From an uncultured Gammaproteobacteria bacterium (GTDB lineage: Bacteria > Pseudomonadota > Gammaproteobacteria > Steroidobacterales > CAZJFQ01): a stretch of 64,000 nucleotides of DNA. Positions 2,031-56,079 of the stretch are shown piece after piece (the stretch's first letter is position 1; each line of letters starts with the position of its first letter). Under the pieces are notes generated by a model, which saw only the letters and a list, made by a program, of their open reading frames with translations, was not told the DNA's origin and ran no database searches. The stretch is taken from assembly GCA_964545335.1 (NCBI GenBank), contig CAZJFQ010000001.1, positions 1,766 through 65,765 on the forward strand, given 5' to 3'. The position numbers and the translations under genes were made by a program.

Positions 2031-2122
2031 CCTAGGCTGTAGGCTCTAGGCTCTAGGCTCTAGGCGTCGGCGCAATAGCGCCGAGCTTCACTTTTCACTT
2101 GTCACTTTTCACTTCCCGCTTT
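2031..2122 (+). repeat. Composite heptamer/hairpin/heptamer intergenic element (copy 2, archetype)
   Basis: 5 x 7 nt (CCTAGGC TGTAGGC TCTAGGC x3) at 2031-2065. Perfect hairpin CGGCGC-AATA-GCGCCG at 2068-2083. 5 x 7 nt (TCACTTT TCACTTG TCACTTT TCACTTC CCGCTTT) at 2088-2122, abutting the rpe stop codon. Confidence 0.85.
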
Positions 2123-5375: not shown

Positions 5376-5475
5376 TACGCGTCGGCATTGTTTCACTTTC
5401 CGTTTATCTGCAGGCACTAGGGAAATAGCGCCGCAGGCGCGCTCTCTTCACTTTTCACTGGTTCATTGTTTACTT
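5376..5475 (+). repeat. Composite heptamer/hairpin/heptamer element, tandem/nested copy (copy 4)
   Basis: TACGCGTCGGC, then TTTCACTTTCCGTTT, then CTGCAGG CACTAGG (5408-5421). Hairpin GCGCC-GCA-GGCGC at 5428-5440 is preceded by AATAGCGCCG. Degenerate TCACTTT TCACTGG TTCATTG TTTACTT follows (5448-5475). Confidence 0.65.
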
Positions 5476-5605
5476 TTGTCAGACAGATTATGCGTTCGTA
5501 ACCGTTTGCCCTCATGATCGGGTGGCTATATTGTACAATCGCCTCCGCTACAGTCTCCAAAGTTTAGGCCGGACTTAAGAATCACATATAAGCCTACCGA
5601 CAGAC

Positions 5606-6922
5606 ATGCTCACCATTTTTTCCCGACTGGCTGACGCCTTCCTGTTCAATGAACGAACCGATGCCGCCGGTCGCCCGCTCCGTACGCTTATCCGGTTTCT
5701 CCGGTTTCCCTATGCCATTCTGCGCGATGTTATAAGCGGAGATCTTACCCTGCGAGCGATGAGTCTTGTGTATACAACGATGTTGTCGATCGTACCGTTA
5801 CTCGCATTTAGCTTTTCCGTTCTCAAGGGGTTCGGTATTCACAGACAGATCGAACAACCGCTGCTGAAATTCTTCGAACCATTGGGTCAGCGCGGAATCG
5901 AACTGTCAAACAATATCATTAGCTTTGTCGACAATGTGCAGGGGACGATACTAGGTACCTTCGGCCTTATTTTTCTGATCTATACAGTTATTTCGATGAT
6001 TCAGAAAGTCGAAGACAGTTTTAACTACGTCTGGCAGGTCGAGCGGCCGCGGAGTTTTGCACGACGATTCAGCGAATATGTGAGTGTCTTGCTGATCGGT
6101 CCCGTTCTGATGTTTACGGCTATTGGCCTGCTTGCATCTCTGGAAAGTACGACTCTGGTACAAAGATTGTCAGAAATCGAACCTTTCGGAACCACGCTCT
6201 TTTACATTTCCAGGTATGCCCCGTTTGTACTGGTCATATTCGTATTCAGCTTTGTCTATTCATTCGTTCCGAATACGCGCGTCAAATTGAGCGCGGCCCT
6301 AGTTGGCGGGACGACGGCTGGCATCATCTGGGCAACGATTGGAAAATTATTTGCGGCGCTCGTTGCCGCGTCGACCAAATACACCGCTATCTATTCGGGA
6401 TTTGCAATCGTTGTCATGGCGCTGATGTGGTTGTATATCAGCTGGCTGATTCTGCTCCTCGGCGCGCAAATTGCATTCTATTATCAGAACCCGGAATTCC
6501 TTCGCAGCGGACGCAGGCGAGTGGAACTGGCCGGTTTACTGCGGGAAAAGTTGGCTTTGAGCACGATGTATCTCCTGGCCGCGGCGTATTACGAAGGGCG
6601 CAACGAGTGGACGCTGAACAAGCTCGCGTCACACTTCGGTGTTCCGGCCAACGCGTTTGGTTCGGTCACGTCGGCACTCGAAAAGCGGGGGCTTATAGTT
6701 GCGACGGAGAATGAACAACTGATGCCAGGCCGGGCGCTTGACACGATTCTGCTGACAGACGTTCTTGCCGCAGTCCGGGACAGTACTGCCGAAGCACCGC
6801 AGCGCACCGGAGTGGCTGTTGTCGACAAACTAGCTGGCGAAATTGAGTCGGCGATTGCGGACAAGCTGGGCAAGAAAACTCTGCGGGATGTCGTCGACAC
6901 TCATGCGGTGACTACCGCCTGA
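5606..6922 (+). CDS. YihY/BrkB-family inner membrane protein with C-terminal cytosolic extension
   Basis: Multi-TM core typical of YihY ('RNase BN-like'). The C-terminal ~130 aa look like a winged helix (WTLNKLASHFGVPANAFGSVTSALEKRGLIV). Confidence 0.85.
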   Translation: MLTIFSRLADAFLFNERTDAAGRPLRTLIRFLRFPYAILRDVISGDLTLRAMSLVYTTMLSIVPLLAFSFSVLKGFGIHRQIEQPLLKFFEPLGQRGIELSNNIISFVDNVQGTILGTFGLIFLIYTVISMIQKVEDSFNYVWQVERPRSFARRFSEYVSVLLIGPVLMFTAIGLLASLESTTLVQRLSEIEPFGTTLFYISRYAPFVLVIFVFSFVYSFVPNTRVKLSAALVGGTTAGIIWATIGKLFAALVAASTKYTAIYSGFAIVVMALMWLYISWLILLLGAQIAFYYQNPEFLRSGRRRVELAGLLREKLALSTMYLLAAAYYEGRNEWTLNKLASHFGVPANAFGSVTSALEKRGLIVATENEQLMPGRALDTILLTDVLAAVRDSTAEAPQRTGVAVVDKLAGEIESAIADKLGKKTLRDVVDTHAVTTA

Positions 6923-8522: not shown

Positions 8523-9365
8523 TTGAGTCCATCGCAACCGATCGACGGCGCGACGCGCGGCTTCATCGCGGCCATCGGCGGCGGGGAAGAAAAATTTGAT
8601 GACCCCGAGATCCTGCATCGATTTGTCAATCTGTGCGGCGGCGAGCCCGCGCGTATTGCTGTCATCCCGACAGCCTCCGAGCTGAATGACAGCGGCCGAC
8701 ATTACGAGAAGCTGTTTCGAACGATCGGCGCCAATCATGTACGGGTACTGGGTTTTTACTCCCGTTCCGACTGCGAGAACGAGAAGTACCTCAACTACCT
8801 GGCCAAGGCCGACGGAGCATTTATGACCGGTGGCAATCAGTTGCGTCTCTCGACTACGCTCGGTGGCACGCCGGTGGCTCAACTGTTACGGCGCCGAAAT
8901 ATGCAGGGCATGCATATCGCAGGAACCTCCGCCGGCGCGGCATTTATGCCGGAGCACATGATTGCAGGCGGTATCGAGGGCAGCACCCCGCGCCCCGAGC
9001 TGGTGACGATGGCGCCGGGACTCGGTTTGACCAATCGCATTGTTGTCGATCAGCACTTTCGAGAACGGGATCGGTTGGGACGGCTACTCACCGCGCTGGC
9101 TTACAACCCCTTTGCGGTGGGCATTGGTCTGGATGAAAACACTGCCGCTTTTATAGCACCGGATGATACTCTAGACGTGATGGGTACCGGCGGACTGACA
9201 ATCGTCGATCCCTCGGAGATTGAATTCTCCTCGATGGACTCGGCCCAGCGTGGGGAACCGGTTAGTCTGATCGGAGTGCGATTACACATCCTGGTCTCCG
9301 GCGGACACTACGACCTCGTCACACGCGAGGCCAGCCATCGAGCAGAACGAATAGCGACAACATAA
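8523..9365 (+). CDS. cphB: Cyanophycinase (peptidase S51), no signal peptide
   Basis: IGGGEE start region and nucleophile motif IAGTSAGAAFM. TTG start at 8523 with GGGAGG 8 nt upstream. The N-terminus is not signal-like, so it resembles the intracellular CphB type. Confidence 0.88.
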   Translation: MSPSQPIDGATRGFIAAIGGGEEKFDDPEILHRFVNLCGGEPARIAVIPTASELNDSGRHYEKLFRTIGANHVRVLGFYSRSDCENEKYLNYLAKADGAFMTGGNQLRLSTTLGGTPVAQLLRRRNMQGMHIAGTSAGAAFMPEHMIAGGIEGSTPRPELVTMAPGLGLTNRIVVDQHFRERDRLGRLLTALAYNPFAVGIGLDENTAAFIAPDDTLDVMGTGGLTIVDPSEIEFSSMDSAQRGEPVSLIGVRLHILVSGGHYDLVTREASHRAERIATT

Positions 9366-9389
9366 AGACCCCTGTTAAGGGGCATATTG

Positions 9390-12179
9390 ATGAAAATCCT
9401 GTCGACAAATGTATTTGTGGGCCCGAATATCTATGCTCGGTTTCCGGTAATCCGTCACGTGCTGGATCTTGGTGAACTGGAAGCCTGGCCAACGGGCCGA
9501 CTGGGTCCCGACTTTACTGACCCACTGCTCGAGGCTTTGCCGGGCCTTTACAAACATGGCTGTTCATATGGTACAGCCGGCGGCTTTGTGCGGCGTCTCA
9601 AGGAGGAAGAAGGCACCTGGCTGGGCCATGTCATGGAGCACGTTGCCATCGAGCTGCAATGCGCGGCCGGCTCCGATGTTACCTTCGGCAAGACACGGTC
9701 GACCGGCAAGCCCGGCGAATACAACCTGATCTTTCAGTACAAGGATGAAGAGGTCGGTCGTGAAGCCGGCCGCCTCGCTCTGGATTTTCTGCATCATCTG
9801 TTGCCGTCTGAACTCAAGCCGGCCGATGCGCCGGCAGCCGAATGGGATTTCACGGCAGAACGGGATAAGTTTATCCGCTATGCGCAGCGTCGGGCCCTGG
9901 GGCCGAGCACGGCCTCACTCGCCCGCGCCGCGGAAGATCGCTCGATACCGTGGATACGATTGAATCGTTACAGCCTATTGCAGTTCGGGCACGGCAAATA
10001 TCAGCAACGCATTCAGGCGACAACCACCAGCCAGACCAGCAACATTGCCGTCGATCTGGCGTCCGACAAGGAAGAAACCAATCGCATACTGACCGACCTC
10101 GGTCTGCCGGTACCGCGGCAGCGGTTGGTTTACAGCGCAAGGGAAGCGGTGAGAGCAGCCGAAAGGATTGGCTATCCCGTAGTCTTGAAGCCCATCGCGG
10201 CCAATCACGGCCGCGGCGTATCTACCAACCTCCGCGTGCCGGAGGAAATTGAAACCGCGTTTGCGAAAGCACGCGAGCATGCCCGGACTGTACTGGTTGA
10301 GAGTTTTATCGAAGGATTTGATCACCGGATACTGGTGACCAACGGCGAAATGATCGCGGCGGCAAAACGCATTCCCGGTCACGTCGTCGGTGACGGCAAA
10401 CTGACCATTGAACAACTTGTAGATGAGGTCAACCGCGATCCGCGACGTGGTGTCGGACATGAGAAAGTACTGACACGTCTGGAGTTTGATCACCAGGCCG
10501 AGAAACTCCTGCAACTGAATGGCTACAGCCGCGATACCGTTCCGCGCACCGACGATATAGTCTATTTGCGAAGAACTGCGAATTTGTCTACTGGTGGTAC
10601 GGCGATCGACGTCACGGACATTGTCCACCCCGACAACCGCGAAATGGCTATACGCGCCGTTCGCGGACTGGGACTGGACATCGGTGGCGTCGATTTCCTT
10701 ACCACGGATATTGCCGAATCCTACCGGGACACCGGTGGTGCGATCTGCGAGGTGAACGCCGGACCCGGCTTTCGCATGCACGTCGCGCCAAGCGAAGGAC
10801 AGCCCCGCGACGTGGCTGGTCCGGTACTCGACATGCTATTTCCCCCGGGCACGCCCAGCACAATTCCGACGGCATGCATTACCGGTACCAACGGCAAGAC
10901 GACCACTGCACGCATGCTGGCCCACATCATGAAGCTGGCTGGTTATACAGTGGGCTTGTCCAGCACTGACGGGGTCTATATCGATGGTCACCTTTCAGTA
11001 GAAGGCGACATGACCGGACCGATGGCGACCAATATGATACTCCGCGACCCGACCGTCGACGCCGCCGTTCTGGAAACTGCACGCGGCGGCATGCTCCGAC
11101 GCGGCATGGGCATAGCCCATTGCGACGTTGCAGCCTGTATCAATGTTTCGGCCGATCATCTCGGTTTGCATGGAATCCATACGGTCGAACAGCTTGCCGA
11201 AGTCAAACGCATTCCAATAGAGATCGCGCAGGACTCGGTCGTGCTCAATGCGGATGACGTCAACTGTCTGAAAATGGCGGATTACGCCGAGGCTGAACAC
11301 GTTTGTTACATCAGTATGAATCCGGGTCATACATTGGTGAAACAACATATTCAATCGGGAGGCCGGGCTGTAGTACTGGAAGAAGGCTACAACGGTTATA
11401 TGATCACGATTTACGACAGTGGCAACCACATCCCGCTGCTGTGGACCCACCTTATCCCCGCAACGCTGGAAGGACGTGCGCTGCATAACGTGCAAAATGC
11501 AATGTTCGCGGCAGCGCTCGCTTACAGCCTCCACGTCAGTCTGGAAAATATACGGCATGGTCTGAGGACCTTTGACACCACATTCTTCCAGGCGCCGGGA
11601 CGGATGAACGTCTTTTCAGAGCACCCGTTCAAGGTCATTCTCGACTATGCCCACAATCCGGCAGCGGTCCAAACCATGTGCGACGTTGTTGACCGGCTGG
11701 ACGAGCCCGGGCGAAAGATTCTCGTATTGTCGGCGCCCGGAGATCGCCGGGATGAGGACATTCTCAAAATCGGCAGTCTGGCTGCCTGCCATTTTGATCA
11801 CTATGTCTGTCGCGGCGACGATAATCCGCGCGGCCGCCAACCTGAGGAAGTCCCGCGCATGCTGGCCGACGCCCTGATTGCCGGCGGTGTCGAAAAATCG
11901 CACATCGAAGTCATTGCCGACGAACAGGAAGCCGTCGACAGCGCACTGAGAGCAGCAGAATCGGGCGACCTGGTGCTCATCTTTGGTGACAACATAAAAC
12001 GCTGCTGGAAGCAGATCATCTATTTTGATGCACACAAACCAATGGCGGGCGCGCGTGAGGTAAGAAAAGAACGTATCGCACCCGCGGAAGACTATGGTTT
12101 CAAAATGGATGAGGACGTTACCCTGATTCGCGATGAACGGGGCGTACGTATCGCCCGCGGACCCGAGCAGGACGACTGA
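9390..12179 (+). CDS. cphA: Cyanophycin synthetase CphA (N domain + ATP-grasp + Mur-ligase-like domain)
   Basis: MKILSTNVFVGPNIY N-domain start, ATP-grasp core (GYPVVLKPIAANHGRGV), Mur-type P-loop ITGTNGKTTTARM, and DYAHNPAA. About 929 aa. Confidence 0.93.
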   Translation: MKILSTNVFVGPNIYARFPVIRHVLDLGELEAWPTGRLGPDFTDPLLEALPGLYKHGCSYGTAGGFVRRLKEEEGTWLGHVMEHVAIELQCAAGSDVTFGKTRSTGKPGEYNLIFQYKDEEVGREAGRLALDFLHHLLPSELKPADAPAAEWDFTAERDKFIRYAQRRALGPSTASLARAAEDRSIPWIRLNRYSLLQFGHGKYQQRIQATTTSQTSNIAVDLASDKEETNRILTDLGLPVPRQRLVYSAREAVRAAERIGYPVVLKPIAANHGRGVSTNLRVPEEIETAFAKAREHARTVLVESFIEGFDHRILVTNGEMIAAAKRIPGHVVGDGKLTIEQLVDEVNRDPRRGVGHEKVLTRLEFDHQAEKLLQLNGYSRDTVPRTDDIVYLRRTANLSTGGTAIDVTDIVHPDNREMAIRAVRGLGLDIGGVDFLTTDIAESYRDTGGAICEVNAGPGFRMHVAPSEGQPRDVAGPVLDMLFPPGTPSTIPTACITGTNGKTTTARMLAHIMKLAGYTVGLSSTDGVYIDGHLSVEGDMTGPMATNMILRDPTVDAAVLETARGGMLRRGMGIAHCDVAACINVSADHLGLHGIHTVEQLAEVKRIPIEIAQDSVVLNADDVNCLKMADYAEAEHVCYISMNPGHTLVKQHIQSGGRAVVLEEGYNGYMITIYDSGNHIPLLWTHLIPATLEGRALHNVQNAMFAAALAYSLHVSLENIRHGLRTFDTTFFQAPGRMNVFSEHPFKVILDYAHNPAAVQTMCDVVDRLDEPGRKILVLSAPGDRRDEDILKIGSLAACHFDHYVCRGDDNPRGRQPEEVPRMLADALIAGGVEKSHIEVIADEQEAVDSALRAAESGDLVLIFGDNIKRCWKQIIYFDAHKPMAGAREVRKERIAPAEDYGFKMDEDVTLIRDERGVRIARGPEQDD

Positions 12180-12197
12180 CAATCCGGCGAGAGCAGG

Positions 12198-13883
12198 ATG
12201 GAACTGATCGACTCCCGCCGTCTCACCGGCCCGAATATCGTCTGGGATCATCCGGGCGCCGTCATCGACATTCGTTTCGGTGACAACGAGCCTGACGAAG
12301 TTATCGATACCTGGAAGCAACAGCTAGGCCGCATGCTGAAAGCGGTCGGCTGGGATGCACTGGAAGTAGCGGTACATCGGGTCCCTGGTGGAGCCAGTCT
12401 CGTTTTTGCCGCACCCATTGATGCGCTGTATGCCGGGACTGACATCAATGACTGGGCCTGGCAAGCCACCTGCAAAAAAATCCAATCCGGAAACGATGTC
12501 GATCCCGGCCCGGATGCAGCACGCCTGAAAGACACAATTACCGAGGAACGGAATCCGCAGCTACAGGCACTGAGAGCTGCCGCGGAAACACGCGACAAAG
12601 TCTTTCTCAGCGATGATGACGACGTCTCGATCGGGCTCGGCTGCAACAGTCTGACTTTCCCGGTCACAGACATTCCATCTGCCGAAGACATCACCTGGGA
12701 TTCGATTGCTGCCATCCCGGTGGGCCTGGTGACGGGCACCAATGGCAAGACGACTTCAGTACGGCTGGCCGCGTCAATCGCCCGTGCAGCCGGACACCGC
12801 GCTGGACTGAGCTCGACGGACTGGATCGCCGTTGACGGGGACATCATCGATCGTGGTGATTATTCTGGCCCCGGAGGAGCGCGCACTATTCTTCGCGACC
12901 GACGTGTCACGCTTGCGATCCTGGAGACGGCGCGTGGTGGCTTGCTCCGCCGCGGCCTCGCGATCAATTATGCGGATGCCGCTCTGATTACCAATATTGC
13001 CGAAGATCACCTCGGCGATTTCGGTGTTCAGGACCTGGAGCAGCTGGCTGACGTCAAGTGGATCGTGACGCGTGCGCTGGGACCTGCCGGCTATGCGATC
13101 CTGAATGCTGAGGATCCGCGACTCGTCGTACGTGCCACACGAAGTTCGGGCTTTAAACTGCTCTGGTTCAGTACTGATCCGGACAACCCGACACTGCGGG
13201 ATCACGTGAACCGGGATGGCTGGGGATTGACGGTAGAGAATCACCAGCTGCTCTGGTATCGCGACGGAAATGCGGCAAAGCTCATCGATGTCCGTGAAAT
13301 CCCGGTTACTTTGCGGGGAGCAGCACGGCACAATGTTGCCAACGCCCTGGGCGCCGCCGGATTGATGCTGGCATTGGGTGTCGACCCTGATGCCGTGATC
13401 TCGGGTCTGACCGGTTTGCTTCCGGAGGACAACCCCGGGCGCTGCAATCTGTATCACATTGGCGACGTCGATGTACTGGTGGACTTTGCGCACAATCCGC
13501 ATGGGATGGCGGCGTTGTTCGAATTGGCGCGCGAGTACCCGGCGAACCGACGTCTGCTCATCATCGGCCAGGCGGGTGACAGGAGCGACGAGGCGATACG
13601 CGAGCTGACGAGATCGGCGTGGAGTATCGGTATCGACCACGTAATCATCAAGGAGATGGCACAGTACGCCCGCGGTCGCCAGCGCGGCGAGATCCCGGCG
13701 CTGATACGCGGCGAGTTCCTCAAACTCGGTGCCGCTGAAGACAGCATCGGCTATCAGGAACACGAAATGGATGCGGTAAAGAAATCACTGGACATGGCCG
13801 GCAAAGGCGATCTCGTTATCATGCTGATCCACGAGAACATGGATGCCGTGACGGATTATCTCCGGTCCCGGAAAGATGCCTGA
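12198..13883 (+). CDS. CphA-like Mur-ligase-family protein lacking the ATP-grasp domain (CphA'/CphA2-like)
   Basis: The N-terminus echoes the CphA N domain (RRLTGPNIVW vs NVFVGPNIYA) and then runs straight into the Mur-ligase module (VTGTNGKTTSVRL, ETARGG, DFAHNPHG). No ATP-grasp segment. The stop overlaps the darP start by 8 nt. Confidence 0.85.
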   Translation: MELIDSRRLTGPNIVWDHPGAVIDIRFGDNEPDEVIDTWKQQLGRMLKAVGWDALEVAVHRVPGGASLVFAAPIDALYAGTDINDWAWQATCKKIQSGNDVDPGPDAARLKDTITEERNPQLQALRAAAETRDKVFLSDDDDVSIGLGCNSLTFPVTDIPSAEDITWDSIAAIPVGLVTGTNGKTTSVRLAASIARAAGHRAGLSSTDWIAVDGDIIDRGDYSGPGGARTILRDRRVTLAILETARGGLLRRGLAINYADAALITNIAEDHLGDFGVQDLEQLADVKWIVTRALGPAGYAILNAEDPRLVVRATRSSGFKLLWFSTDPDNPTLRDHVNRDGWGLTVENHQLLWYRDGNAAKLIDVREIPVTLRGAARHNVANALGAAGLMLALGVDPDAVISGLTGLLPEDNPGRCNLYHIGDVDVLVDFAHNPHGMAALFELAREYPANRRLLIIGQAGDRSDEAIRELTRSAWSIGIDHVIIKEMAQYARGRQRGEIPALIRGEFLKLGAAEDSIGYQEHEMDAVKKSLDMAGKGDLVIMLIHENMDAVTDYLRSRKDA

Positions 13884-15281: not shown

Positions 15282-16469
15282 GTGTATCTCGAGCATTTCA
15301 AGCTTAAGGATCACCCGTTCCGGCTCAGCCCGGACCCGAATTACTTGTTTCTCAGCAAACAGCACTCGCGGGCCAAGGCATACATCGAGTCAACGGTCTG
15401 GTTTGCCGACGGATTTGTCATCATCACCGGAGAGATCGGGTCCGGGAAGACGATCCTGCTCGAGCGATTCCTTACGGAATTGCCTGATGATGTGATTACC
15501 GCTCGTATCGCTCAGACACAGATCACGCCCACCCAGTTGCTCCAGATACTGCTCGCGGAATTCGGGTTCAAGCCGTTTCGCAAGCGCAAAGCGGAACTTC
15601 TGAATATGCTGAGTGAGTACCTGTCCGAGCGGTCCCGCAGCGGTCGAAAGGTCGTCATCATCATTGATGAAGCGCAAAATCTGACGCCCCGGGTACTGGA
15701 AGAGATACGGTTGATATCCGGCATTGAAGGCCATAAGAATAAGGTACTGAGCATCATCCTGGCGGGTCAGCCAGAACTCAACGAAGCTCTCGATGCACAG
15801 AATATGCGCCAGTTGACACAACGAACGCGGCTGCGTTTTCACCTCGGCCCGTTGTCCGAGGATGAAGTTCGTGAGTACGTCCGGCACCGGCTGGATGTTG
15901 CGGGTGCGCGCGGTCGCAAAATCTTCAAAAAGGCAGCATTCGATCCGATCTACAAGTACACCGGCGGAATCCCCAGGCTGATCAACACGTTATGTGACAC
16001 CGCGCTGATCGGTGCCTTTGCTGATGACGTCCAGACGGTAACCGATCAGGACATCCGCAACGCCGTGGATGAACTGCAGTGGGTCGAATACGCCGAGACG
16101 ACCAGCCGCCAGCGCACGATGAAGCAAGCCGAGGTCGGGGCCGACAGTGACGCAGATGGCCGGTTGGCGGTGCTGTCGATCGCCCAGAACGGACAAATGA
16201 CTATGGAATTCACACTCGGCCAGGGCCGGGTCATTATCGGTCGGACATCCGACAACGACTTGCAGATCGACAGCAAATACATCAGTCGCCATCACGCGCA
16301 GATAGTTTCCAAACCCAGGTATTGTGTGCTGGAGGATCTCAACAGCACAAACGGGATCTATGTACGATCACAACGCGTGAAAAAGCACCGTCTGCGTGAT
16401 GGCGACGTGATCATGATCGGGAAACACGAACTGCGGTATTCAAATCAGCGCCTGTCCGGCAACGACTGA
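15282..16469 (+). CDS. ExeA/GspA/MshM-type AAA+ ATPase fused to a C-terminal FHA domain
   Basis: N-terminus HFKLKDHPFRLSPDPNYLF, Walker A GEIGSGKT, Walker B VVIIIDEAQNL, GGIPRLIN. The C-terminal ~95 aa carry FHA signatures (IIGRTSDNDLQI, SRHHAQI, NSTNGIYV). GTG start. Confidence 0.85.
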   Translation: MYLEHFKLKDHPFRLSPDPNYLFLSKQHSRAKAYIESTVWFADGFVIITGEIGSGKTILLERFLTELPDDVITARIAQTQITPTQLLQILLAEFGFKPFRKRKAELLNMLSEYLSERSRSGRKVVIIIDEAQNLTPRVLEEIRLISGIEGHKNKVLSIILAGQPELNEALDAQNMRQLTQRTRLRFHLGPLSEDEVREYVRHRLDVAGARGRKIFKKAAFDPIYKYTGGIPRLINTLCDTALIGAFADDVQTVTDQDIRNAVDELQWVEYAETTSRQRTMKQAEVGADSDADGRLAVLSIAQNGQMTMEFTLGQGRVIIGRTSDNDLQIDSKYISRHHAQIVSKPRYCVLEDLNSTNGIYVRSQRVKKHRLRDGDVIMIGKHELRYSNQRLSGND

Positions 16470-16501
16470 GCCCGGTCTCTGCATACGGGCAACGCAGGAG
16501 A

Positions 16502-16768
16502 TCAACCGAGGTCGCTATCGGCTCTCGACACCTGAGCGGGGCCTGATACTCGTCCCGCCTCCGGCTGCTGGGACGACTGTCGAAAACCCCGCCGTTTCAG
16601 CCACACCACTAAACCTGCTACCAGGCAGCCAAACCCCGCCACAACAGCGACATACGTCCAGGGCCAGAAATCCGGAAACAATGCAGCACCAAGGCAAATG
16701 AGCCCGGCGACAATGTAGTAGTACGGCAGGGACTCGTACACTGGTTTTGGCAGCCAGAATGGCCTCAT
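16502..16768 (-). CDS. Hypothetical small membrane protein (2 TM)
   Basis: Two hydrophobic helices (YYYIVAGLICLGAALF, YVAVVAGFGCLVAGLVVWL) followed by a basic/polar tail. Confidence 0.55.
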   Translation of the reverse strand: MRPFWLPKPVYESLPYYYIVAGLICLGAALFPDFWPWTYVAVVAGFGCLVAGLVVWLKRRGFRQSSQQPEAGRVSGPAQVSRADSDLG

Positions 16769-16997
16769 ACGTTGATCCTCAGCAGCAAATCAGGATTGGG
16801 CCGGCAATCGTAACCGTTCACTGCTCTATTGTGCCGTGCATCCAGTCACAGATGAACCGGCAAACGCGGTCCGGTGGATGACTTTGTGATGTGGTTCACA
16901 GTTTTTGCTCTTGCCGGGCCAAAGGCGGTCACCAAATGGCAATTCCTTGATTCAGTCCATAAAAAAAATTCGACATCTGCATACACTAGGAACCACT

Positions 16998-17921
16998 ATG
17001 AGCGGGTTTCTAGGGCGATTGTTGCGCGCAGCGGGCCGGCTTGCCGGCTCTGCCATGCCGTTGTTTCTTGCCTGCGACCGGGTGCTGGCAAGGAACCTAT
17101 CGGATCCCGTGTTTTCCTGGGACGCCTTCGGTGTCGCATACGCGTATTTCATCGCTTGCGTCGTGCTAGCCGGCCTGCTCTATATGTTCTTTCGCTGGCA
17201 GATCGTCCTCAACCCCGGCGCGATTACGCGTCGATATGCTGTCGCCGTTCAGCTGATCGGCCTGCTCTACGTGATTGCGTCGATCCTGGAGAATGCGATC
17301 TCCGGCAACGGCACGTCCAGCCTGCCGTATGAATCACTGCCGTTAATTGGATTTGTCATCATCGTCCATTATCTTGCGGACCGCGAAGAGCAACCGGCGG
17401 TCCTTATTTTTGCCTTTTCTCTGGTCATCGCGATCATGGCGGTCGGTTTCGTGGCCTTGAGCATGGGCTGGGTTGAAATCCGCCCCGGGCAATGGGTCAT
17501 CGGGGCAGTCGGCGCCGGAATGGTCGGCTACACACTGGCCCAAACCACCCGGACAAAGAAGTCGTACATCAGCAGGGCCGCGGTCGAGCGCAAAGTCTCG
17601 ATGAAACGCGCTATCCCCGGTGTGCGTGCGTGGTTATCGGTGGAACAGTGGGTGGCACTTGCGGTGGCCAGCCTGGTGGTCGCCGCGGTCACGCAGACGC
17701 TGGCCGGCAGATCCCTGCTGTCGGTGCCCGCGAGCAGAATTTTCTATCACATGGTCGTACTGCTCGGGGGGACGCTGATTATCGGACTGCTCTACTCCGG
17801 CCTGCATTGGCTGCTGAGCCGACGATCAGCTGGCGAGCTGGCCTGGGTTCTGTGGATGGTCTGGATACTGATCGCTTTCGCGTCCACATACGGCATGTTT
17901 CTGGTCGGCCGTTCGGTCTGA
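16998..17921 (+). CDS. Hypothetical polytopic inner membrane protein
   Basis: About 8 hydrophobic segments. The ATG at 16998 is preceded by AGGA. The track start at 16905 is TTG and hydrophilic. Confidence 0.6.
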   Translation: MSGFLGRLLRAAGRLAGSAMPLFLACDRVLARNLSDPVFSWDAFGVAYAYFIACVVLAGLLYMFFRWQIVLNPGAITRRYAVAVQLIGLLYVIASILENAISGNGTSSLPYESLPLIGFVIIVHYLADREEQPAVLIFAFSLVIAIMAVGFVALSMGWVEIRPGQWVIGAVGAGMVGYTLAQTTRTKKSYISRAAVERKVSMKRAIPGVRAWLSVEQWVALAVASLVVAAVTQTLAGRSLLSVPASRIFYHMVVLLGGTLIIGLLYSGLHWLLSRRSAGELAWVLWMVWILIAFASTYGMFLVGRSV

Positions 17922-17927
17922 ATCGAA

Positions 17928-18215
17928 TCAGTCGCCGCGCCGTCGGCGATTCCTGTCGTAGTACTCCCGGATAGCGCTGTCGAGCGACGTGCAAGCCTCG
18001 TCGACACCGCGTGTCTGCGCCAGGACGAACAGAGCGTCCTGCAGGTCATCCGGAAAGTCAGCTATAGACATTGCGAACTCCTGCACACCGTCACCGGACA
18101 GATGGGCAGCGGAGTCGTTGGGCCGCAGCAGCAGCAGCGGATCCTTGAGGACCAGGGCTTTCCAGACCTCGTAAGGGTCCCAGCGCACGCGGGTGTCAGC
18201 AGGTTTCTCGCTCAT
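17928..18215 (-). CDS. Hypothetical small acidic protein
   Basis: ORF with an internal ATG (MSEKPADT...). No motif recognised. The C-terminus is Arg-rich. Confidence 0.45.
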   Translation of the reverse strand: MSEKPADTRVRWDPYEVWKALVLKDPLLLLRPNDSAAHLSGDGVQEFAMSIADFPDDLQDALFVLAQTRGVDEACTSLDSAIREYYDRNRRRRGD

Positions 18216-18363
18216 CGTATAACGTGATTTGACCGTGTCAGACTCTATTCTTAGTCGATTTTCGCCACAGTGCCGTGAAGAGTCTCGCACTTTCGACAGC
18301 CGGTGAACCAGAAGCCCCGGGGACCGTGCGGCCCCCGGGCGCGATCGGATCCTGCATCCGGGG

Positions 18364-18870
18364 TCAGGGCATGATCACCGGAGTATCACCGCAATCGTCG
18401 CCGGAACCGCCCGACGCGCCATTGCCCGGATCATCATCGCCGGGATCATCTGCACCGGGTCGCGTAAAGTGGACGCCGGCCTGAAACGTCCCGCTGCGCT
18501 CGGTACCCCAGGCCGTTATGGCCTCGTACTCCACGTCGCCGTCGAGACCAAGCGCATTCCCAAGATCCGGTTCACGGGAGAAGGCCGCAAGTACCCAGTC
18601 ATTCTCACCACCGGAAGACCCGAGAACCTGATAGTTAACCCAGCCCGGGATAACTCCGTATATCAGCGTGGCACCTGGATGATGCTCGTTGAAATGATCC
18701 AGCGCTTCGCGGACAAAAGCCATCGGACGGTTTTCCGGATCCGCGCAGGTGCCACACTCGATGGTGTAATCGATAGGGCTGAGCGGATCGGACAACGCGA
18801 GTGGGGCTGCTCCCTCGAGAAAGAGCATCAATAGGGCATAAAGCCAGACTTTCCTTTGTTTGGATTCCAT
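18364..18870 (-). CDS. Hypothetical secreted protein with Asp/Gly/Pro-rich C-terminal tail
   Basis: Signal-peptide-like N-terminus (KVWLYALLMLFLEGAAPLALS) and a low-complexity tail (PGADDPGDDDPGNGASGGSGDDCGD). Confidence 0.6.
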   Translation of the reverse strand: MESKQRKVWLYALLMLFLEGAAPLALSDPLSPIDYTIECGTCADPENRPMAFVREALDHFNEHHPGATLIYGVIPGWVNYQVLGSSGGENDWVLAAFSREPDLGNALGLDGDVEYEAITAWGTERSGTFQAGVHFTRPGADDPGDDDPGNGASGGSGDDCGDTPVIMP

Positions 18871-19017
18871 GGCAGAACCTCCTTGTTCTGTCGGGTTGTT
18901 GTATCAGCAGTGGCTGGCCCTGGCGGAATCCACCTGGACATCCACTAATGGTCTAATACTACCATATATGGCATACTTGGCAAGATTCCAAATGAGCCCA
19001 CTGTCTGAGGATTCCCG

Positions 19018-19818
19018 ATGTTCCGATCCGTACTCATCGCTCTGATTCTTGGTCTGGCAGCCGTAGCAACAACGCTGAGCACTGTCGGATTTTTTGGATG
19101 GCAACCGGATGCAGCAGCAAACTCTCAACGCAGTCCGAATGAAGAAAGCAGTGACACCCTGTCGCAACAGCTGCAGCAGTTCAGCGCACTGCTCCGGTCG
19201 GTTGCAAAGGATGGGGCAACAAGCGACCAGTCAACTCCGGTGTCACAAGGCAGAGTCCCGACTGACGACCATGTAAAGAGGGATAACCATTGGGGAAATA
19301 CGACCGAGACCACCCTGCCCGATGGCCGTAAAGCACGAGTTGACCGTATTACCGGCGAGATTGTCAGTTGGGATGCCAGAACGCCGGAAGAAGCAAAGCG
19401 CTTTGGCTTCGACTTCGATTTTCGGCGCAGCGACTATGCCACGTATGGTCTTGTTACTCTCGAGCAACTCGCTGACGGCGGCGATTACATCGCGATGATG
19501 TATGTTGCAGAAGTTCGCGCTCGGGAACGAGATTATGACGCGGCCAAGCGTCTGTGGCTAACGTCGGCAACGATTTCGGGCCAGACCCGGGGGCTCGCCA
19601 ACGCTGCGGCTCATTTCTTCTCCCGACGCAACTACTACGACAGCCTGGTGTTTTCTGAACTGGCCGTCCGCCTGGGCGATAACCTGACCTATAACTTTGG
19701 CGCGTCGGCCAAAAGACTGATGTCGCAGGAAGACGTCGAGGCAGCAGAGCAAGACGCTGATCGGATTTTTAAATCGATGCTGACGGGACGCCGTTTGCGT
19801 ATCGGTGAGGGGTTCTGA
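19018..19818 (+). CDS. Hypothetical membrane-anchored/periplasmic protein
   Basis: N-terminal hydrophobic anchor (VLIALILGLAAVATTL). The C-terminal half is helical with a weak Sel1/TPR-like flavour. Confidence 0.6.
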   Translation: MFRSVLIALILGLAAVATTLSTVGFFGWQPDAAANSQRSPNEESSDTLSQQLQQFSALLRSVAKDGATSDQSTPVSQGRVPTDDHVKRDNHWGNTTETTLPDGRKARVDRITGEIVSWDARTPEEAKRFGFDFDFRRSDYATYGLVTLEQLADGGDYIAMMYVAEVRARERDYDAAKRLWLTSATISGQTRGLANAAAHFFSRRNYYDSLVFSELAVRLGDNLTYNFGASAKRLMSQEDVEAAEQDADRIFKSMLTGRRLRIGEGF

Positions 19819-19856
19819 ACTTTTTTTAGTTACATCATGAGACGATCACAGGAAGC

Positions 19857-20108
19857 ATGACCATGTTGCCTTTTAATATTCGGTTTCTGGTAACAGCCGG
19901 TGTAACCGGCATCTACAGTTGGGCCGCAGCTTTGGCACTAAAACTGTCCCTGAATTCGGGCCTACCGGACTGGAGCCAGAAAATCACCTTGCTGGTTTTG
20001 CTGCCTGGTTTTCTCATCGCACCATTTCTTGCCTGGCGATGGATCTCCCGGCAACGCTATGGCCCACACGATGGTCCAACCGATGCGAAAGATCCCCTGA
20101 GAGGCTAG
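19857..20108 (+). CDS. Hypothetical small membrane protein (2-3 TM)
   Basis: Hydrophobic ORF 38 nt downstream of the previous gene on the same strand. Confidence 0.5.
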   Translation: MTMLPFNIRFLVTAGVTGIYSWAAALALKLSLNSGLPDWSQKITLLVLLPGFLIAPFLAWRWISRQRYGPHDGPTDAKDPLRG

Positions 20109-20116
20109 ATTGCGGC

Positions 20117-20671
20117 TCAGCGAATAACGTTGTTGACGCCGGAAGAGGACGGTCGCGGCGCAGGGAGCGACGTTGACACAGACCGTATCGGTAACCTGCC
20201 GGATCCGGACCGGGACATACCGGTCAGCGGTGAACTGGTGCGCGACCGGCTGCTGTAGCTGGTCGCGGAACGACGACTGGGGTCTGCCGGGGCTATGTCA
20301 CCGTCTTCGCCCAGCCGCGGAGTGCGGGGGTTATCGTCGGGTTCCGAAGTTTCCGGTGGCTCATGCGGAACCACCTCCGCGGGGGGCGGAGGATAGTACA
20401 CCGGCGGGTGATAAGCACCGTGCATACCCCCAGCAGCTCCATAGAAAGGCATGGAAGGGCTGTAGTTGGCGCCGTCATCAAATAAACCGGCGCCCTGCGC
20501 GGGCAGGGCAGTGCCGGCCGTTTGGGTACTGTAGCCGTAAGGCAGGAGACCCAGATCGTCTACCGGGCCTGCAAACGGATTCTGGGCACAGCCGACCGCA
20601 AACGCCGCTGCCAGAAGCGCCAGCGCTGCAATCATGCGCTGCAATCCGGGTTGTCGCTCAGTTGACTTCAT
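20117..20671 (-). CDS. Hypothetical lipoprotein, Pro-rich centre and Ser/Arg-rich tail
   Basis: Lipobox-like LLAAAFAVGC, then YHPPVYYPPPPAEVVPHEPPE, then an S/R-rich C-terminus. Confidence 0.6.
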   Translation of the reverse strand: MKSTERQPGLQRMIAALALLAAAFAVGCAQNPFAGPVDDLGLLPYGYSTQTAGTALPAQGAGLFDDGANYSPSMPFYGAAGGMHGAYHPPVYYPPPPAEVVPHEPPETSEPDDNPRTPRLGEDGDIAPADPSRRSATSYSSRSRTSSPLTGMSRSGSGRLPIRSVSTSLPAPRPSSSGVNNVIR

Positions 20672-46855: not shown

Positions 46856-47467
46856 CTATTTACAGTGCGCGCGCAGATAGTCTTCGCGAATCTCGATTGT
46901 GCGACGCAGTTCCGACACCTTATCGACGATGGCCATTTCCGACACGGAAAAGGTGTCGACCGGCAGGATGGCATTATTGCCGGCAATGCGTGTTCCAGTC
47001 GGCGGCTCGAGCGCCTTTTCGTCCAGCGCCAGGAGTTTTCGAACCACAGCACAGTCGCCCCAGTCGGCGTTCAGCCTTGTATACAAGCGACTTGCCCTGC
47101 TCCGTTCTGCCGCGGTCAGCTGGGGCCGGATTTCCTGATCGAGCGCCTTGAGTTCCGGAATGTCGCGCTCCGCCGCGAGCTGAATCCAGGCTGCGCCGCG
47201 CGCTGCATCCTGTTCAACACCGATCCCCTGTAAATACATCAGGCCGATCTGGTACTGCGCATACTTGTCCCCAATCGGGGCGAGCTGATCTCTGTATGTC
47301 CTGAGGGCCGACTTGTAGTCGCCGCCTGCAAATTCTGAATCCGCAAGTTTCTGAGCATCGACGTAGGCTTCCGTCATCGGCGGGCCGGGAAATTCGTCCG
47401 CTAGTGTACCGGCAAACACCCAGGTCACCGTCAAAATGCCAAGGCTAAGGCCAATCATTTTCGACAT
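46856..47467 (-). CDS. Secreted Sel1-like repeat protein
   Basis: ATG at 47467 is preceded by GGGAGG. Signal-like MSKMIGLSLGILTVTWVFAG. Sel1-type repeat YQIGLMYLQGIGVEQDAARGAAWIQLAAERD. Confidence 0.7.
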   Translation of the reverse strand: MSKMIGLSLGILTVTWVFAGTLADEFPGPPMTEAYVDAQKLADSEFAGGDYKSALRTYRDQLAPIGDKYAQYQIGLMYLQGIGVEQDAARGAAWIQLAAERDIPELKALDQEIRPQLTAAERSRASRLYTRLNADWGDCAVVRKLLALDEKALEPPTGTRIAGNNAILPVDTFSVSEMAIVDKVSELRRTIEIREDYLRAHCK

Positions 47468-47629
47468 GAATCGCCTCCCATAGTCGTCATAGTAATTACA
47501 ATTTGGCCGCACCGACCCAAAAAAGTTCTGACCCAATACGCCATTTCGGCCGATCACTGTACCCGCGCGACCGAGCCGCTCCGTGTTGTGGACCGCACTG
47601 ACCAATCAGGCGTACCGGTGCGCCGGAAA

Positions 47630-50379: not shown

Positions 50380-50388
50380 ATGACTGTG

Positions 50389-50517
50389 TCTTGAGTCCTG
50401 AGCCAGCGGCGCAACTGCGCCGGATATTTTTCCATTTTTTTGATGTTCTTCGTGGTCAATTACGCGTCAGCGTTACTTCCCGCTTCCCGCTTCCCGCTTC
50501 CCGCTTCCCGCTTCCCG
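50389..50517 (+). repeat. Composite heptamer/hairpin/heptamer element, long variant with 6 perfect CTTCCCG units (copy 5)
   Basis: TCTTGAG TCCTGAG (50389-50402). Hairpin CGGCGC-AACT-GCGCCG (50407-50422). Spacer with ACGC-GTCA-GCGT (50462-50473). (CTTCCCG)x6 at 50476-50517, 5 nt from the ggt stop codon. The unit count was checked against ORF 50322..50555. Confidence 0.85.
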
Positions 50518-50522
50518 CTTTT

Positions 50523-52220: not shown

Positions 52221-52405
52221 ATCGAACTCCCTTGGATAATCAGCACATCCGGTGTCGCGGGGATTTTGTATTTCCGGGCAATTCTACCGGAAACAACGAT
52301 GGCAAAGCGCGCTACAGATAGCGCACACTTTGCGTGCGAAAGGAATTTTCCAGCCGGCGGCTCCGAACGCCGCCATCTGCCGACTGTGGACTGAGGACTC
52401 ACGAC

Positions 52406-52792
52406 ATGGACGACAACAAATCTTTGACGATTCTGCAAGCCCTTGCCGACGGTGCCAATCCGTTTACCGGTGAGGGATTCCCCGGTGACAGTGTCTACCA
52501 GGACCCGCGTCTGATTCGGGCTCTGTTCGCGGCGGTACAAAGCCTCGAGCAGGCGGCAGGGCGGCGATCAACCAGAAAGGACCTGCCGCCCAACACCGGC
52601 AAAAAATGGGCACAGGAAGAAGAACAGAAACTCGCGGTCGGCTTCGACTCCGGCCGCAGCATCGAGGAACTGGCCGTTGTTCATCAGCGAACCTATGGTT
52701 CCATCGAAGCCCGGCTGGCGAAGATCGGCAAAATAGAGTTGCCGCCGGAGAAACTGAGATTCCACCAGGCCAGGAAATCCCAAAATCCATAG
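52406..52792 (+). CDS. Hypothetical small protein (128 aa)
   Basis: ATG at 52406 (MDDNKSLT). Divergent from ggt. Possible helix-turn-helix flavour (KKWAQEEEQKLAVGFDSGRSIEELA) but not confidently recognised. Confidence 0.5.
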   Translation: MDDNKSLTILQALADGANPFTGEGFPGDSVYQDPRLIRALFAAVQSLEQAAGRRSTRKDLPPNTGKKWAQEEEQKLAVGFDSGRSIEELAVVHQRTYGSIEARLAKIGKIELPPEKLRFHQARKSQNP

Positions 52793-55353: not shown

Positions 55354-55463
55354 CTGTTAGTCCTGAGTCCTGAATCCTGAGCTGCCGACGCATCCGCATC
55401 GGTTCACTTTCCGCTTGCCGCTGTCCGCTTTCCACTTTTCACCTTTCACTTCCCGGTTCCCGC
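55354..55463 (+). repeat. Composite heptamer/hairpin/heptamer element inside the alpha operon (copy 6)
   Basis: CTGTTAG TCCTGAG TCCTGAA TCCTGAG (55354-55381). Imperfect hairpin CCGACGC-ATCC-GCATCGG (55385-55402). Eight units TTCACTT TCCGCTT GCCGCTG TCCGCTT TCCACTT TTCACCT TTCACTT CCCGGTT (55403-55458). The parts sum to the 117-nt rpsM-rpsK spacer. Confidence 0.85.
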
Positions 55464-55470
55464 AAAGTGC

Positions 55471-55827
55471 TTACTTCTTGATCGGTCTCCGCGGGCCCTT
55501 TCTGCAGCGTGCATTCGTCCTGGTTCGCTGACCCCGAACAGGCAGCCCGCGCCGGTGACGGATTCCGCGGTAGCAACCGAGGTCCATCAAGCGTTTGATG
55601 TTCATCGACACTTCCCGGCGCAGGTCGCCCTCAACCGGGAATTTCGCGATTTCCGTCCTGAGTTTAGCCAACTCCGGCTCACCCAGGTCCTTGACCTTGA
55701 CTCCCGGGTCAATACCGGCGCCAGCACAAGCCTGTCTGGCCCGGGTTTGTCCGATGCCATAGATATCGGTCAGTGCGATACCGATGTGCTTGTGTACCGG
55801 TATGTTGATGCCTGCAATACGTGCCAT
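55471..55827 (-). CDS. rpsM: 30S ribosomal protein S13
   Basis: [14 protein letters not shown] start. Confidence 0.98.
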
Positions 55828-55828
55828 G

Positions 55829-55948
55829 CTGTAGTCCTGAGTCTGTATCCTAGGTCTGTAGTCTGTAGTCTGTAGTCTGTAGCAATGTCATGGCGCTATA
55901 GCGCCGCTTCTTTTCACTCTTCACTCTTCGCTTCCCGCTTCCCGCCGC
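55829..55948 (+). repeat. Composite heptamer/hairpin/heptamer element in the rpmJ-rpsM spacer (copy 7)
   Basis: Eight units CTGTAGT CCTGAGT CTGTATC CTAGGTC TGTAGTC x3 TGTAGCA (55829-55884). Hairpin GGCGC-TATA-GCGCC (55892-55905). Then CGCTTCT TTTCACT-type units TCACTCT x2, TCGCTTC, CCGCTTC, CCGCCGC (to 55948). Confidence 0.85.
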
Positions 55949-55965
55949 GTGAACCTTGTGCACGC

Positions 55966-56079
55966 TTATCCCTGCCTCTGCTTGTGCCGCGCGTCTTTGC
56001 AGATAACGCGCACGACACCCTTACGTCGCACGATCTTGCAATCGCGGCAAATCTTTTTGACTGAAGCCCTGACTTTCAT
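55966..56079 (-). CDS. rpmJ: 50S ribosomal protein L36 (Zn-binding type)
   Basis: Not in the ORF track because it is under 60 aa. My translation is [37 protein letters not shown] (37 aa) with a CxxC...C...H pattern. It lies between secY and rpsM as expected. Confidence 0.93.

Follow-up and report, generated by a model that had tools for sequence, protein, structure and literature searches.

A 64,000-nucleotide stretch of contig CAZJFQ010000001.1 (assembly GCA_964545335.1) from an uncultured gammaproteobacterium, referred to here as the window, carries a set of intergenic cassettes in which two different arrays of tandem 7-nucleotide (nt) units lie on either side of a small GC hairpin. Read in the sense of the neighboring genes, every strong copy in the window has the same order: stop codon, purine array, GC hairpin, a different array, and then the next ATG. 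The cassettes are best explained as transcription-polar heptanucleotide repeat arrays, resized by slippage, that surround a GC hairpin on polycistronic mRNA and act in cis with proposed roles in gene expression. This reading is given a probability of about 65%; within it, we infer from the sequence both the transcription of the cassettes as part of polycistronic mRNA and their action in cis.

Cassette plan and orientation

The archetype lies between the − strand gene for ribulose-phosphate 3-epimerase (rpe) and, downstream, that for a class-I glutamine amidotransferase (trpG). Pfam agrees with both gene names, which had been proposed in a first-pass annotation of the window, and the three parts described there were reproduced exactly in sequence and coordinates. 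On the + strand these are a left array of CCTAGGC TGTAGGC and three copies of TCTAGGC (2031-2065), a perfect hairpin CGGCGC-AATA-GCGCCG (2068-2083), and a right array of TCACTTT TCACTTG TCACTTT TCACTTC CCGCTTT (2088-2122) that adjoins the rpe stop codon (2123-2125). In gene sense, the parts are as follows.

2087-2122, − strand: post-stop purine array, AAAGCGG GAAGTGA AAAGTGA CAAGTGA AAAGTGA, its first base directly 3' of the rpe stop
2067-2084: GC hairpin TCGGCGC-AATA-GCGCCGA, with a perfect 7-bp stem and a 4-nt loop, the stable part of the centroid fold
2031-2065, − strand: pre-start array, three GCCTAGA units, GCCTACA and GCCTAGG, 18 nt from the trpG ATG (2012)

Four complete cassettes, all in gene sense, occupy the rpe-trpG (2013-2122), ggt-APH (50380-50522), rpsM-rpsK (55354-55470) and rpmJ-rpsM (55828-55965) spacers. 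The post-stop array is purine-rich and C-poor, of the class GYGRRRN (GTGAAAA, GCGGGAA, GCGGAAA, GAAGTGA, GGAAAGC), and begins right at the stop codon or up to about 22 nt from it. The hairpin has an all-GC stem of 5-7 bp and a 4-nt loop, usually C-GGCGC-NNNN-GCGCC-G. The pre-start array is of the class RGACTNN (equivalent to CTACAGA or CTCAGGA), or GCCTAGA in the archetype, and stops 0-18 nt short of the next start codon, often supplying a Shine-Dalgarno-like AGGA about 7 nt 5' of the ATG. At rpsM, rpsK and several orthologues, the AGGA-bearing variant is the penultimate unit, 7 nt from the ATG. Pre-start arrays adjoin the start codons of rpsK and rpsM and the ATG at 52406, and do likewise on the contigs L130 and L132. 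These two, which are syntenic with the window (L132 comes from GCA_036447915.1), belong to the only close relatives that were identified, a group in which ribosomal protein S13 is 89% identical. The recurrent three-part intergenic plan, with its 7-nt period and fixed order of parts, is therefore supported as first proposed. The other copies and partial copies in the window are listed below.

50476-50522, − strand: post-stop purine array of six perfect GCGGGAA units, directly 3' of the stop (50523) of the gamma-glutamyltranspeptidase gene (ggt; Pfam)
50407-50422: GC hairpin of the ggt-APH spacer, CGGCGC-AACT-GCGCCG, which scores as terminator-like on the + strand
50389-50402, − strand: short pre-start array of the APH-family gene, CTCAGGA CTCAAGA, 5' of the ATG at 50379
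55404-55463, − strand: rpsM-rpsK post-stop purine array, units 1-4 GGGAACC GGGAAGT GAAAGGT GAAAAGT and units 5-8 GGAAAGC GGACAGC GGCAAGC GGAAAGT
55385-55402: rpsM-rpsK imperfect hairpin, CCGATGC-GGAT-GCGTCGG as read on the − strand
55354-55381, − strand: rpsK pre-start array, CTCAGGA TTCAGGA CTCAGGA CTAACAG, adjoining the rpsK ATG (55353); its final AGGA is 7 nt from the ATG, and the array is identical in five strains
55947-55965: small hairpin that lies, in gene sense, between the rpmJ stop (55966-55968) and the following purine array
55910-55948, − strand: rpmJ post-stop purine array, two GGGAAGC units, two GAAGAGT units and GAAAAGA
55891-55906: rpmJ-rpsM GC hairpin, (C)GGCGC-TATA-GCGCC
55828-55882, − strand: rpsM pre-start array, four CTACAGA units, CCTAGGA, TACAGA, CTCAGGA and CTACAGC, adjoining the rpsM ATG (55827); the AGGA comes from the penultimate unit
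1354-1379, − strand: post-stop purine array after trpG, AGAAAAGCGG GAAGCGA AAAGCGG GA, beginning at the trpG stop (1380-1382)
1286-1351: hairpins of the trpG 3' spacer, TCGCG-TCAG-CGCGA (1338-1351) and GGCGC-CAG-GCGCC (1286-1298); the spacer (1281-1379) has the post-stop array and hairpins and no downstream gene
52356-52405, + strand: copy overlooked by the first-pass annotation, GGCGGC-TCCGAAC-GCCGCC (52356-52374) followed by GACTGTG GACTGAG GACTCAC GAC; it has the hairpin and pre-start array only and ends at the ATG (52406) of a 128-aa + strand open reading frame (ORF)
2865-2885, − strand: degenerate pre-start-type array in the rpe leader, CCTAGGG CCTGGGG CCTAAGG, about 68 nt from the ATG at 2797
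5385-5480, − strand: degenerate copy between purC (+) and a BrkB-family gene (+), with its purine units on the − strand; its + strand shows a GCGCC-GCA-GGCGC hairpin and then a tail rich in pyrimidines

The excess of 7-nt periodicity is specific. A self-match scan of the window found seven arrays of period 7, compared with 0-2 for each other period from 4 to 12, and L130 and L132 have 13 and 12 such arrays, with 0-1 at other periods. Arrays contain 3-8 head-to-tail units by Tandem Repeats Finder (TRF) and self-match scan, which together recover the arrays listed earlier (1354-1375, 50476-50520, 55359-55381, 55407-55449, 55829-55882 and 55913-55945). The string RGACTNNRGACT occurs five times in the window (0.13 expected), three consecutive GYGRRRN units occur nine times (0.03 expected), and GGCGC-N3-6-GCGCC occurs five times (1.55 expected), with four of the five inside heptamer spacers. 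The strong arrays all lie in spacers, and in the relatives some reach into the last codons of the upstream gene. A string said to be shared between copies, ATAGCGCCG, is indeed present at 2075, 5425 and 55898, but three of 100 shuffles also give three matches.

Orientation follows the transcription of the neighboring genes, rather than the + strand or replication. The pyrimidine arrays had been said to lie on the + strand regardless of gene direction, and this is contradicted by the copy at 52356-52405. Because that + strand copy precedes a + strand gene, the apparent rule is an effect of gene orientation in the window, where the − strand encodes most genes, those of the ribosomal operons among them, and GC skew is negative over most of the length and near zero at about 4-20 kb. 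The genes rplQ and x (the ORF that begins at 52406 in the window) converge in L130 and L132, and each carries a purine array directly past its own stop codon and in its own sense; the leader of x has a full cassette on the strand opposite to the ribosomal operon. Therefore, polarity tracks transcription, and, in view of the + strand copy and the converging genes, replication was rejected as the cause of the orientation. The rplQ and x purine arrays flank an ordinary terminator, which is also present in the window, so the post-stop array is a module able to exist without the CGGCGC hairpin. The three modules are also found apart in the other direction, with the hairpin and pre-start array alone at 52356-52405. 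This polarity points to a constraint or role at the level of RNA.

The gene x itself (52406-52792, + strand) is conserved, has no Pfam match and lies between rplQ and the gamma-glutamyltranspeptidase gene. It is syntenic in L005, L130 and L132, its leader bears a cassette in all three lineages, and its start was placed too early, at a GTG at 52334, in the mechanical ORF list.

Inheritance and remodeling among relatives

Contigs nearly identical to the window were recovered from several metagenomes. Clustering of the S13 protein gives one 100% cluster, followed by the single 89% cluster (labeled "MAG: Gammaproteobacteria bacterium", where MAG is a metagenome-assembled genome) and then by Woeseiaceae and Thiotrichales MAGs at about 81%. 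Cassettes occupy the orthologous rpmJ-rpsM and rpsM-rpsK spacers of the window and of both L130 and L132, and non-repeat anchors, TGACATTG among them, are conserved at cassette spacers in all three. The rpsM-rpsK hairpin is canonical in the relatives, as CGGCGC-TACT-GCGCCG in L130 and CGGCGC-TGCA-GCGCCG in L132, and both relatives have cassettes or cassette-type arrays in the ggt-APH spacer and the leader of x. Across the window, L130 and L132, 10 of 11 GGCGC-N3-6-GCGCC sites are flanked by a purine array on one side and an RGACT-type array on the other. Two outgroups with S13 81% identical have ordinary spacers at the syntenic loci and no period-7 arrays there; their GGCGC-N3-6-GCGCC sites fall inside coding sequence. 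The multi-copy character claimed from the window thus extends beyond it, and the data show inheritance of the cassette in orthologous spacers within an uncultured clade of gammaproteobacteria.

Other spacers differ in whether an array is present. The rpoA-rplQ spacer is 124-148 nt with cassette-type arrays in the relatives, compared with 21 nt in the window, and the 3' end of rplQ has a cassette-type array in both L130 and L132 and is plain in the window. A cassette or cassette-type array occupies the L23-L2 spacer in L132 and not in L130. The same is true of the APH-methyltransferase spacer in L132 only, where the gap is 417 nt as annotated; the two genes overlap in the window.

Between close strains, whole-unit differences in copy number (7 nt or multiples) were seen at four spacers. 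Five contigs of near-identical strains show length differences of 7 or 14 nt in the rpsM-rpsK purine array, and the GCCTAGA array of rpe-trpG has five units in the window and six in the strain contig L001. In the sister group, rpsM-rpsK has two or three AGCGGGA units and rpoA-rplQ has two or three GCGGAAA units. The data show expansion and contraction in 7-nt steps between strains, which is the pattern expected of replication slippage.

Some changes are of another kind. In L133 (12496-12634), the rpoA-rplQ purine array is swapped for one of another unit family relative to L132 (12496-12626). In L135 (2651-2701), the entire rpmJ-rpsM spacer is swapped relative to L132 (9890-10000), such that 51 nt with only a CTGAAGA array replace 111 nt and the rpmJ stop codon differs. 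These replacements occur between strains with identical S13 protein. In the ggt-APH spacer of L130, 26 nt of the purine array are repeated perfectly in inverted orientation (GTGAAACGTGACAGGTGAAACGTGAA), with an irregular unit included (6523-6571 and 6702-6738), which points to inverted duplication or template switching and not to slippage. The array swap, the spacer swap and the inverted copy together indicate that recombination or template switching acts besides slippage.

The same variation could be read as a neutral by-product, in which replication or repair in this lineage favors 7-nt slips and selection merely filters the units and orientations that are tolerated on transcripts, for instance by avoiding strong structure and spurious starts and by retaining a Shine-Dalgarno motif. 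The copy-number changes between near-identical strains agree with this, as do the presence or absence of arrays at one spacer (rpoA-rplQ, or APH-methyltransferase in L132), the abundance of heptamer arrays in scattered phyla, and Mrazek's idea of polymerase slippage as it is summarized in PMC4679880 and PMC4692102. However, the arrays persist at the same spacers, essential ribosomal operons included, between relatives whose S13 is 89% identical, and neutral slippage does not account for the strict order of array types, the conserved hairpin sequence or the AGGA-bearing unit at a fixed distance from the ATG. Neutrality is given odds well below even. If the arrays are neutral, the lineage would still be a striking case of slippage remodeling operon spacers.

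Structure, proposed function and competing explanations

When the sense strand was folded as RNA, the small GC hairpin appeared in the centroid structures with little else, and the arrays were unpaired. Fold z-scores relative to shuffles were −0.3 to +0.5 for five of six sense-strand spacers, and the degenerate copy (5385-5480) was no more stable than shuffles on either strand. The archetype spacer scored −1.5, with 14 of 200 shuffles as good, and its GCCTAGA units pair weakly among themselves. No complementarity was found between the two arrays and no terminal inverted repeats were present, the central hairpins being the only inverted repeats.

Under the preferred reading, of polar arrays resized on an operon transcript, the arrays would be made and resized by replication slippage and the cassette would be carried on polycistronic mRNA. 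The hairpin may block 3'-5' exonucleases or mark a site of processing at which neighboring cistrons are uncoupled; on the opposite strand, together with its T-rich tail, it may counter antisense transcription. The downstream array may hold the ribosome-binding region single-stranded and may offer repeated Shine-Dalgarno-like or standby sites in addition to supplying the AGGA. The number of units would then tune spacing and expression, as a "tuning knob".

Several observations weigh against this account. A few unit families and a near-identical stem are found at locus after locus. Independent slippage at each site would not be expected to produce this recurrence, which implies either that sequence is copied from one locus to another or that a sequence-specific constraint or factor is at work. 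Conservation of the stem lies in its sequence, without covariation, such that structural selection alone is not demonstrated. GCGGGAA units lack a stop codon and CTACAGA units lack a Shine-Dalgarno motif, which leaves no one role at the RNA level that fits every unit. The copy at 5385-5480 is the only one antisense to both of its neighbor genes, and polarity itself was established on about 95 kb from three related genomes. Stop codons in three frames were rejected as a general explanation, in that GTGAAAN and GCCTAGA supply them and GCGGGAA and CTACAGA do not.

A bolder form of the functional reading is operon punctuation across the clade. A dedicated factor or a ribosome-linked mechanism would read the purine array, CGGCGC hairpin and RGACT array together and thereby control termination-reinitiation and mRNA processing, with slippage tuning stoichiometry. 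This is considered doubtful. If it were true, array slippage would be a heritable means of tuning protein stoichiometry even in essential ribosomal operons, and the hairpin-plus-RGACT arrays of metagenomes and the inverted heptamer pairs of other phyla would be forms of the same undescribed class.

Recurrence of the same units could also be explained if the arrays were a binding platform for a trans-acting RNA- or DNA-binding factor, such as CsrA on CAGGA, ribosomal protein S1, or a cold-shock or lineage-specific protein, that would define a post-transcriptional regulon. CAGGA is the motif of the CsrB repeats, and the CUCAGGA arrays carry it. The unit cores RGACT and GYGRR are conserved across loci, the stem is conserved by sequence rather than by covariation, and a similar proposal has been made for the TAACTGA repeats discussed below (PMC4679880). 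Set against this, units vary across loci and strains (GCCTAGA, CTACAGA, CTCAGGA and CTCACCA; GTGAAAA as opposed to GCGGGAA), an array was exchanged for one of another unit family in the near-identical strain L133, and the analysis yielded no candidate factor. A binding platform is judged unlikely.

Matches to terminators bear on the possibility of a one-way transcription insulator, in which the GC hairpin and the T-rich complement of the purine array form an intrinsic terminator against antisense transcription. Sense transcription would read through, because the tract 3' of the hairpin is not U-rich; an intrinsic terminator in gene sense was itself rejected, given that the hairpin leads into the RGACTNN array and not into a U run. 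Terminator-like scores were obtained on the antisense strand only, for the hairpins at 50407 and 55891 with the T-rich complement of the purine array. These two (50407-50422 and 55891-55906) are flagged by a simple terminator scan of the + strand, the antisense strand for the local genes, and the copy at 5385-5480 puts a hairpin and pyrimidine tail in the sense direction past purC, where a terminator is expected. However, the tails contain interruptions (CTTCTTTTCAC, AGCTTCACTTTTC) and are not clean U runs, the scan gave 12 sites in the region with 8.1 expected and so has low specificity, and the pre-start array is left without a role. As a whole, an insulator seems quite improbable.

The cassette is very probably not a mobile REP-like element. 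The first-pass annotation had likened it to repetitive extragenic palindromic (REP) sequences and bacterial interspersed mosaic elements (BIME), and there is a likeness to those of Enterobacteria and Pseudomonas in that both are GC-rich, intergenic, co-transcribed palindromes. REP sequences stabilize upstream mRNA, which is also proposed for the cassette hairpin. The anatomy differs, however. A single perfect hairpin of 16-18 nt takes the place of the REP palindrome, which is imperfect, about 20-40 nt long and has a conserved GTAG/CTAC head, and GTAG or CTAC occurs only within some adjacent repeat units, at no fixed position. Each cassette has one hairpin with flanks polar with gene direction and no inverted pairs, unlike a BIME mosaic, and tandem heptamer arrays are not a REP feature. 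An identity as a miniature inverted-repeat transposable element (MITE) was rejected as well, given that there are no terminal inverted repeats and that no target-site duplication was seen at the rpoA-rplQ site, where presence and absence can be compared.

Spread of the cassette as a non-autonomous REP/BIME- or MITE-like element, by a REP-associated tyrosine transposase (RAYT) or other transposase elsewhere in the genome, is the least supported of the alternatives and highly improbable. It would account for the near-identical CGGCGC...GCGCCG stems and common unit families at many loci, for the presence or absence of cassettes and replacement of whole spacers between relatives, and for the GTAG/CTAC tetranucleotides of CTACAGA units beside a palindrome. 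It fails to account for arrays that are not mutually complementary and lack terminal inverted repeats, for boundaries that are stop and start codons, for modules that occur independently, for orthologous positions conserved across the clade, for the single short hairpin in place of REP pairs, or for the missing target-site duplication. The window had been said to lack transposase, RAYT and integrase genes, and Pfam agrees for the 48 ORFs scanned, which excluded the ribosomal-protein genes beyond 53 kb and included several ORFs without any Pfam match.

Searches for a known RNA family were likewise negative, as the first-pass annotation had anticipated. No Rfam family matched the whole window at gathering score, and E-value searches of four sub-regions gave no family. 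The only notable match was a sub-threshold one to Alpha_RBS at 55795-55848 (− strand), with 31.4 bits, below the gathering score of 38. The alignment is confined to the Shine-Dalgarno region and first rpsM codons and covers the last units of the CTACAGA array; the 61-nt structured part of this S4-binding leader model is absent, and the CTACAGA array lies in its place.

Relation to known heptamer repeats and other observations

Heptamer repeats in bacteria were first recorded decades ago, as the short tandemly repeated repetitive (STRR) sequences of cyanobacteria, and their function and origin are unexplained. The cassette belongs with these known heptanucleotide repeats; its closest counterpart is the TAACTGA repeat of the Beggiatoaceae, and the three-part polar plan is the new part. 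The suggestion that the 7-nt architecture might be undescribed therefore holds in part. Heptanucleotide repeats as such are known (PMC4679880, PMC4692102, PMC2700814), whereas no description of the polar three-part plan, with two array classes in fixed order, a hairpin and stop/start polarity, was found in the literature searched.

In a 2007 survey, heptamers were the most over-represented class of simple sequence in many genomes (Mrazek et al., as summarized in PMC4679880 and PMC4692102). The cassette arrays resemble the long simple sequence repeats (LSSR) and STRR of that summary in having tandem 7-nt units, intergenic position and an excess of period 7, as well as scattered phylogeny and length variation among close relatives. 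The arrays here comprise at least three tandem heptamers, are mostly intergenic and vary by whole units between strains. They depart from the general description, as summarized, in having two unit classes in a fixed order, a conserved GC hairpin, and a position locked to co-directional stop and start codons.

In marine Beggiatoaceae, TAACTGA direct repeats lie directly upstream of start codons, ribosomal operons included (MacGregor 2015, PMC4679880). The likeness extends to a gammaproteobacterial host and to forward arrays just 5' of starts at ribosomal-operon sites. A TAACTGA-type unit was rejected as the identity of the arrays here, whose units are CTACAGA, CTCAGGA, GCCTAGA and similar. In contrast to the TAACTGA repeats, the unit is RGACTNN or GCCTAGA and the cassette adds a post-stop purine array and a conserved hairpin (PMC4679880). 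The units also often contain AGGA, whereas TAACTGA regions are reported to have canonical ribosome-binding sites only rarely (PMC4679880).

The purine arrays recall the G-rich intergenic heptamers GGGAATC of Xanthomonas and GGGGAYT of Nostoc, which are often near stop or start codons and vary extensively in length and sequence among close relatives (Rehm et al. 2015, PMC4692102). The six GCGGGAA units at 50476-50522 have a comparable G3-N4 G-quadruplex form (PMC4692102), with six GGG runs 4 nt apart on the mRNA-sense strand, and four GCGGGAA units of G-quadruplex form lie between rpmJ and rpsM in L130 (727-769). Most purine units here, such as GTGAAAA and GCGGAAA, cannot form G-quadruplexes, unlike GGGAATC and GGGGAYT, and the cassette adds a hairpin and a second array (PMC4692102). 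A G-quadruplex was rejected as a general explanation, in that the GCGGGAA arrays alone qualify.

In Geobacter metallireducens, multicopy sites of five tandem MTYCTGA units or four tandem GGACCGG units are a further parallel, and the reverse complement of the former, TCAGRAK, closely resembles the cassette unit CTCAGGA. These elements, some of them intragenic, are annotated as putative global regulator sites or RNA elements, and a stop-hairpin-start architecture is not described for them in the portion of that report drawn on here (PMC2700814).

A functional precedent is the (ATCTTTC)n repeat in the 5' untranslated region of hmw1A and hmw2A in Haemophilus influenzae, which is transcribed and for which unit number has been shown experimentally to set the expression level (PMC12721329). 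The heptamers again lie 5' of a start codon and an RNA hairpin is part of the hmw mechanism; the hmw repeats, however, form one arm of a long hairpin cleaved by RNase III, whereas the cassette arrays are predicted to be unpaired and the stem is a separate one of 5-7 bp (PMC12721329). Long-hairpin models of the hmw type, as RNase III targets, were rejected because the centroid folds leave the arrays unpaired, five of six sense-strand spacers do not exceed shuffles in stability and the archetype does so only marginally. The cassette loci are housekeeping operons and the hmw loci are contingency genes.

The cassettes offer an unusually clean case among such repeats, with two polar array types, a conserved hairpin, essential and highly expressed operons, and natural copy-number variants. 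They allow concrete tests of whether repeats tune translation, mRNA stability or antisense transcription.

Heptamer arrays were also sought more widely. A scan of a genome collection with four AAGYGNN units, using one genome per species, gave arrays from many phyla among the matches listed. The AAGYGNN loci among these included 256 arrays of period 7, compared with 2-29 for other periods, and the purine strand was the sense strand of a stop-abutting gene in 56 as opposed to 24 of 121 cases, by crude ORF calls. In other phyla, the listed heptamer arrays usually occur as inverted pairs. For instance, L044, L109 and L094, from Thermomicrobiales and other MAGs, have an array (X)n, a short spacer and a reverse-complement array, with up to 12 arrays in 8 kb, an architecture that differs from that of the window cassette.

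A metagenome scan with a query of the hairpin and 2.3 RGACTNN units gave 28 distinct loci, of which about 20 have roughly three or more units 3' of the hairpin and nine have at least four. Several of the 28 belong to other lineages. None of the 28 has a strong upstream purine array, and that scan gave no instance of the full three-part plan outside the clade. Heptamer arrays, and even the hairpin-plus-RGACT arrangement, are thus widespread, and the full polar three-part cassette appears, on this sampling, to be specific to this clade. Four of the metagenome contigs, from the Joint Genome Institute (L147, L152, L154 and L163), have a GGCGC-N4-GCGCC hairpin followed by GGGACTA or GGGACTG heptamers directly past a stop codon. 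The product of the gene 5' of the hairpin ends in ...KKKFEDVGAKVEVK and is read as ribosomal protein L7/L12; the lineage is GC-rich and unrelated to the source of the window.

Three further features of the window were noted. Within the − strand Sel1-repeat ORF at 46856-47605, positions 47167-47210 hold a 23-nt tandem duplication (GCTCCGCCGCGAGCTGAATCCAG, 1.9 copies); given that 23 is not a multiple of 3, this may mark a frameshift or a mis-called ORF. An unannotated block amid housekeeping genes, at 15282-20671, begins with a protein of AAA_22 and FHA domains (15282-16469) and continues with six ORFs (16502-20671) that have no Pfam match at E≤1e-5. A cyanophycin gene cluster at 8523-13883 encodes a cyanophycinase-like peptidase S51, a cyanophycin synthetase-like protein of 930 aa and a second protein with a Mur-ligase domain, of 561 aa.

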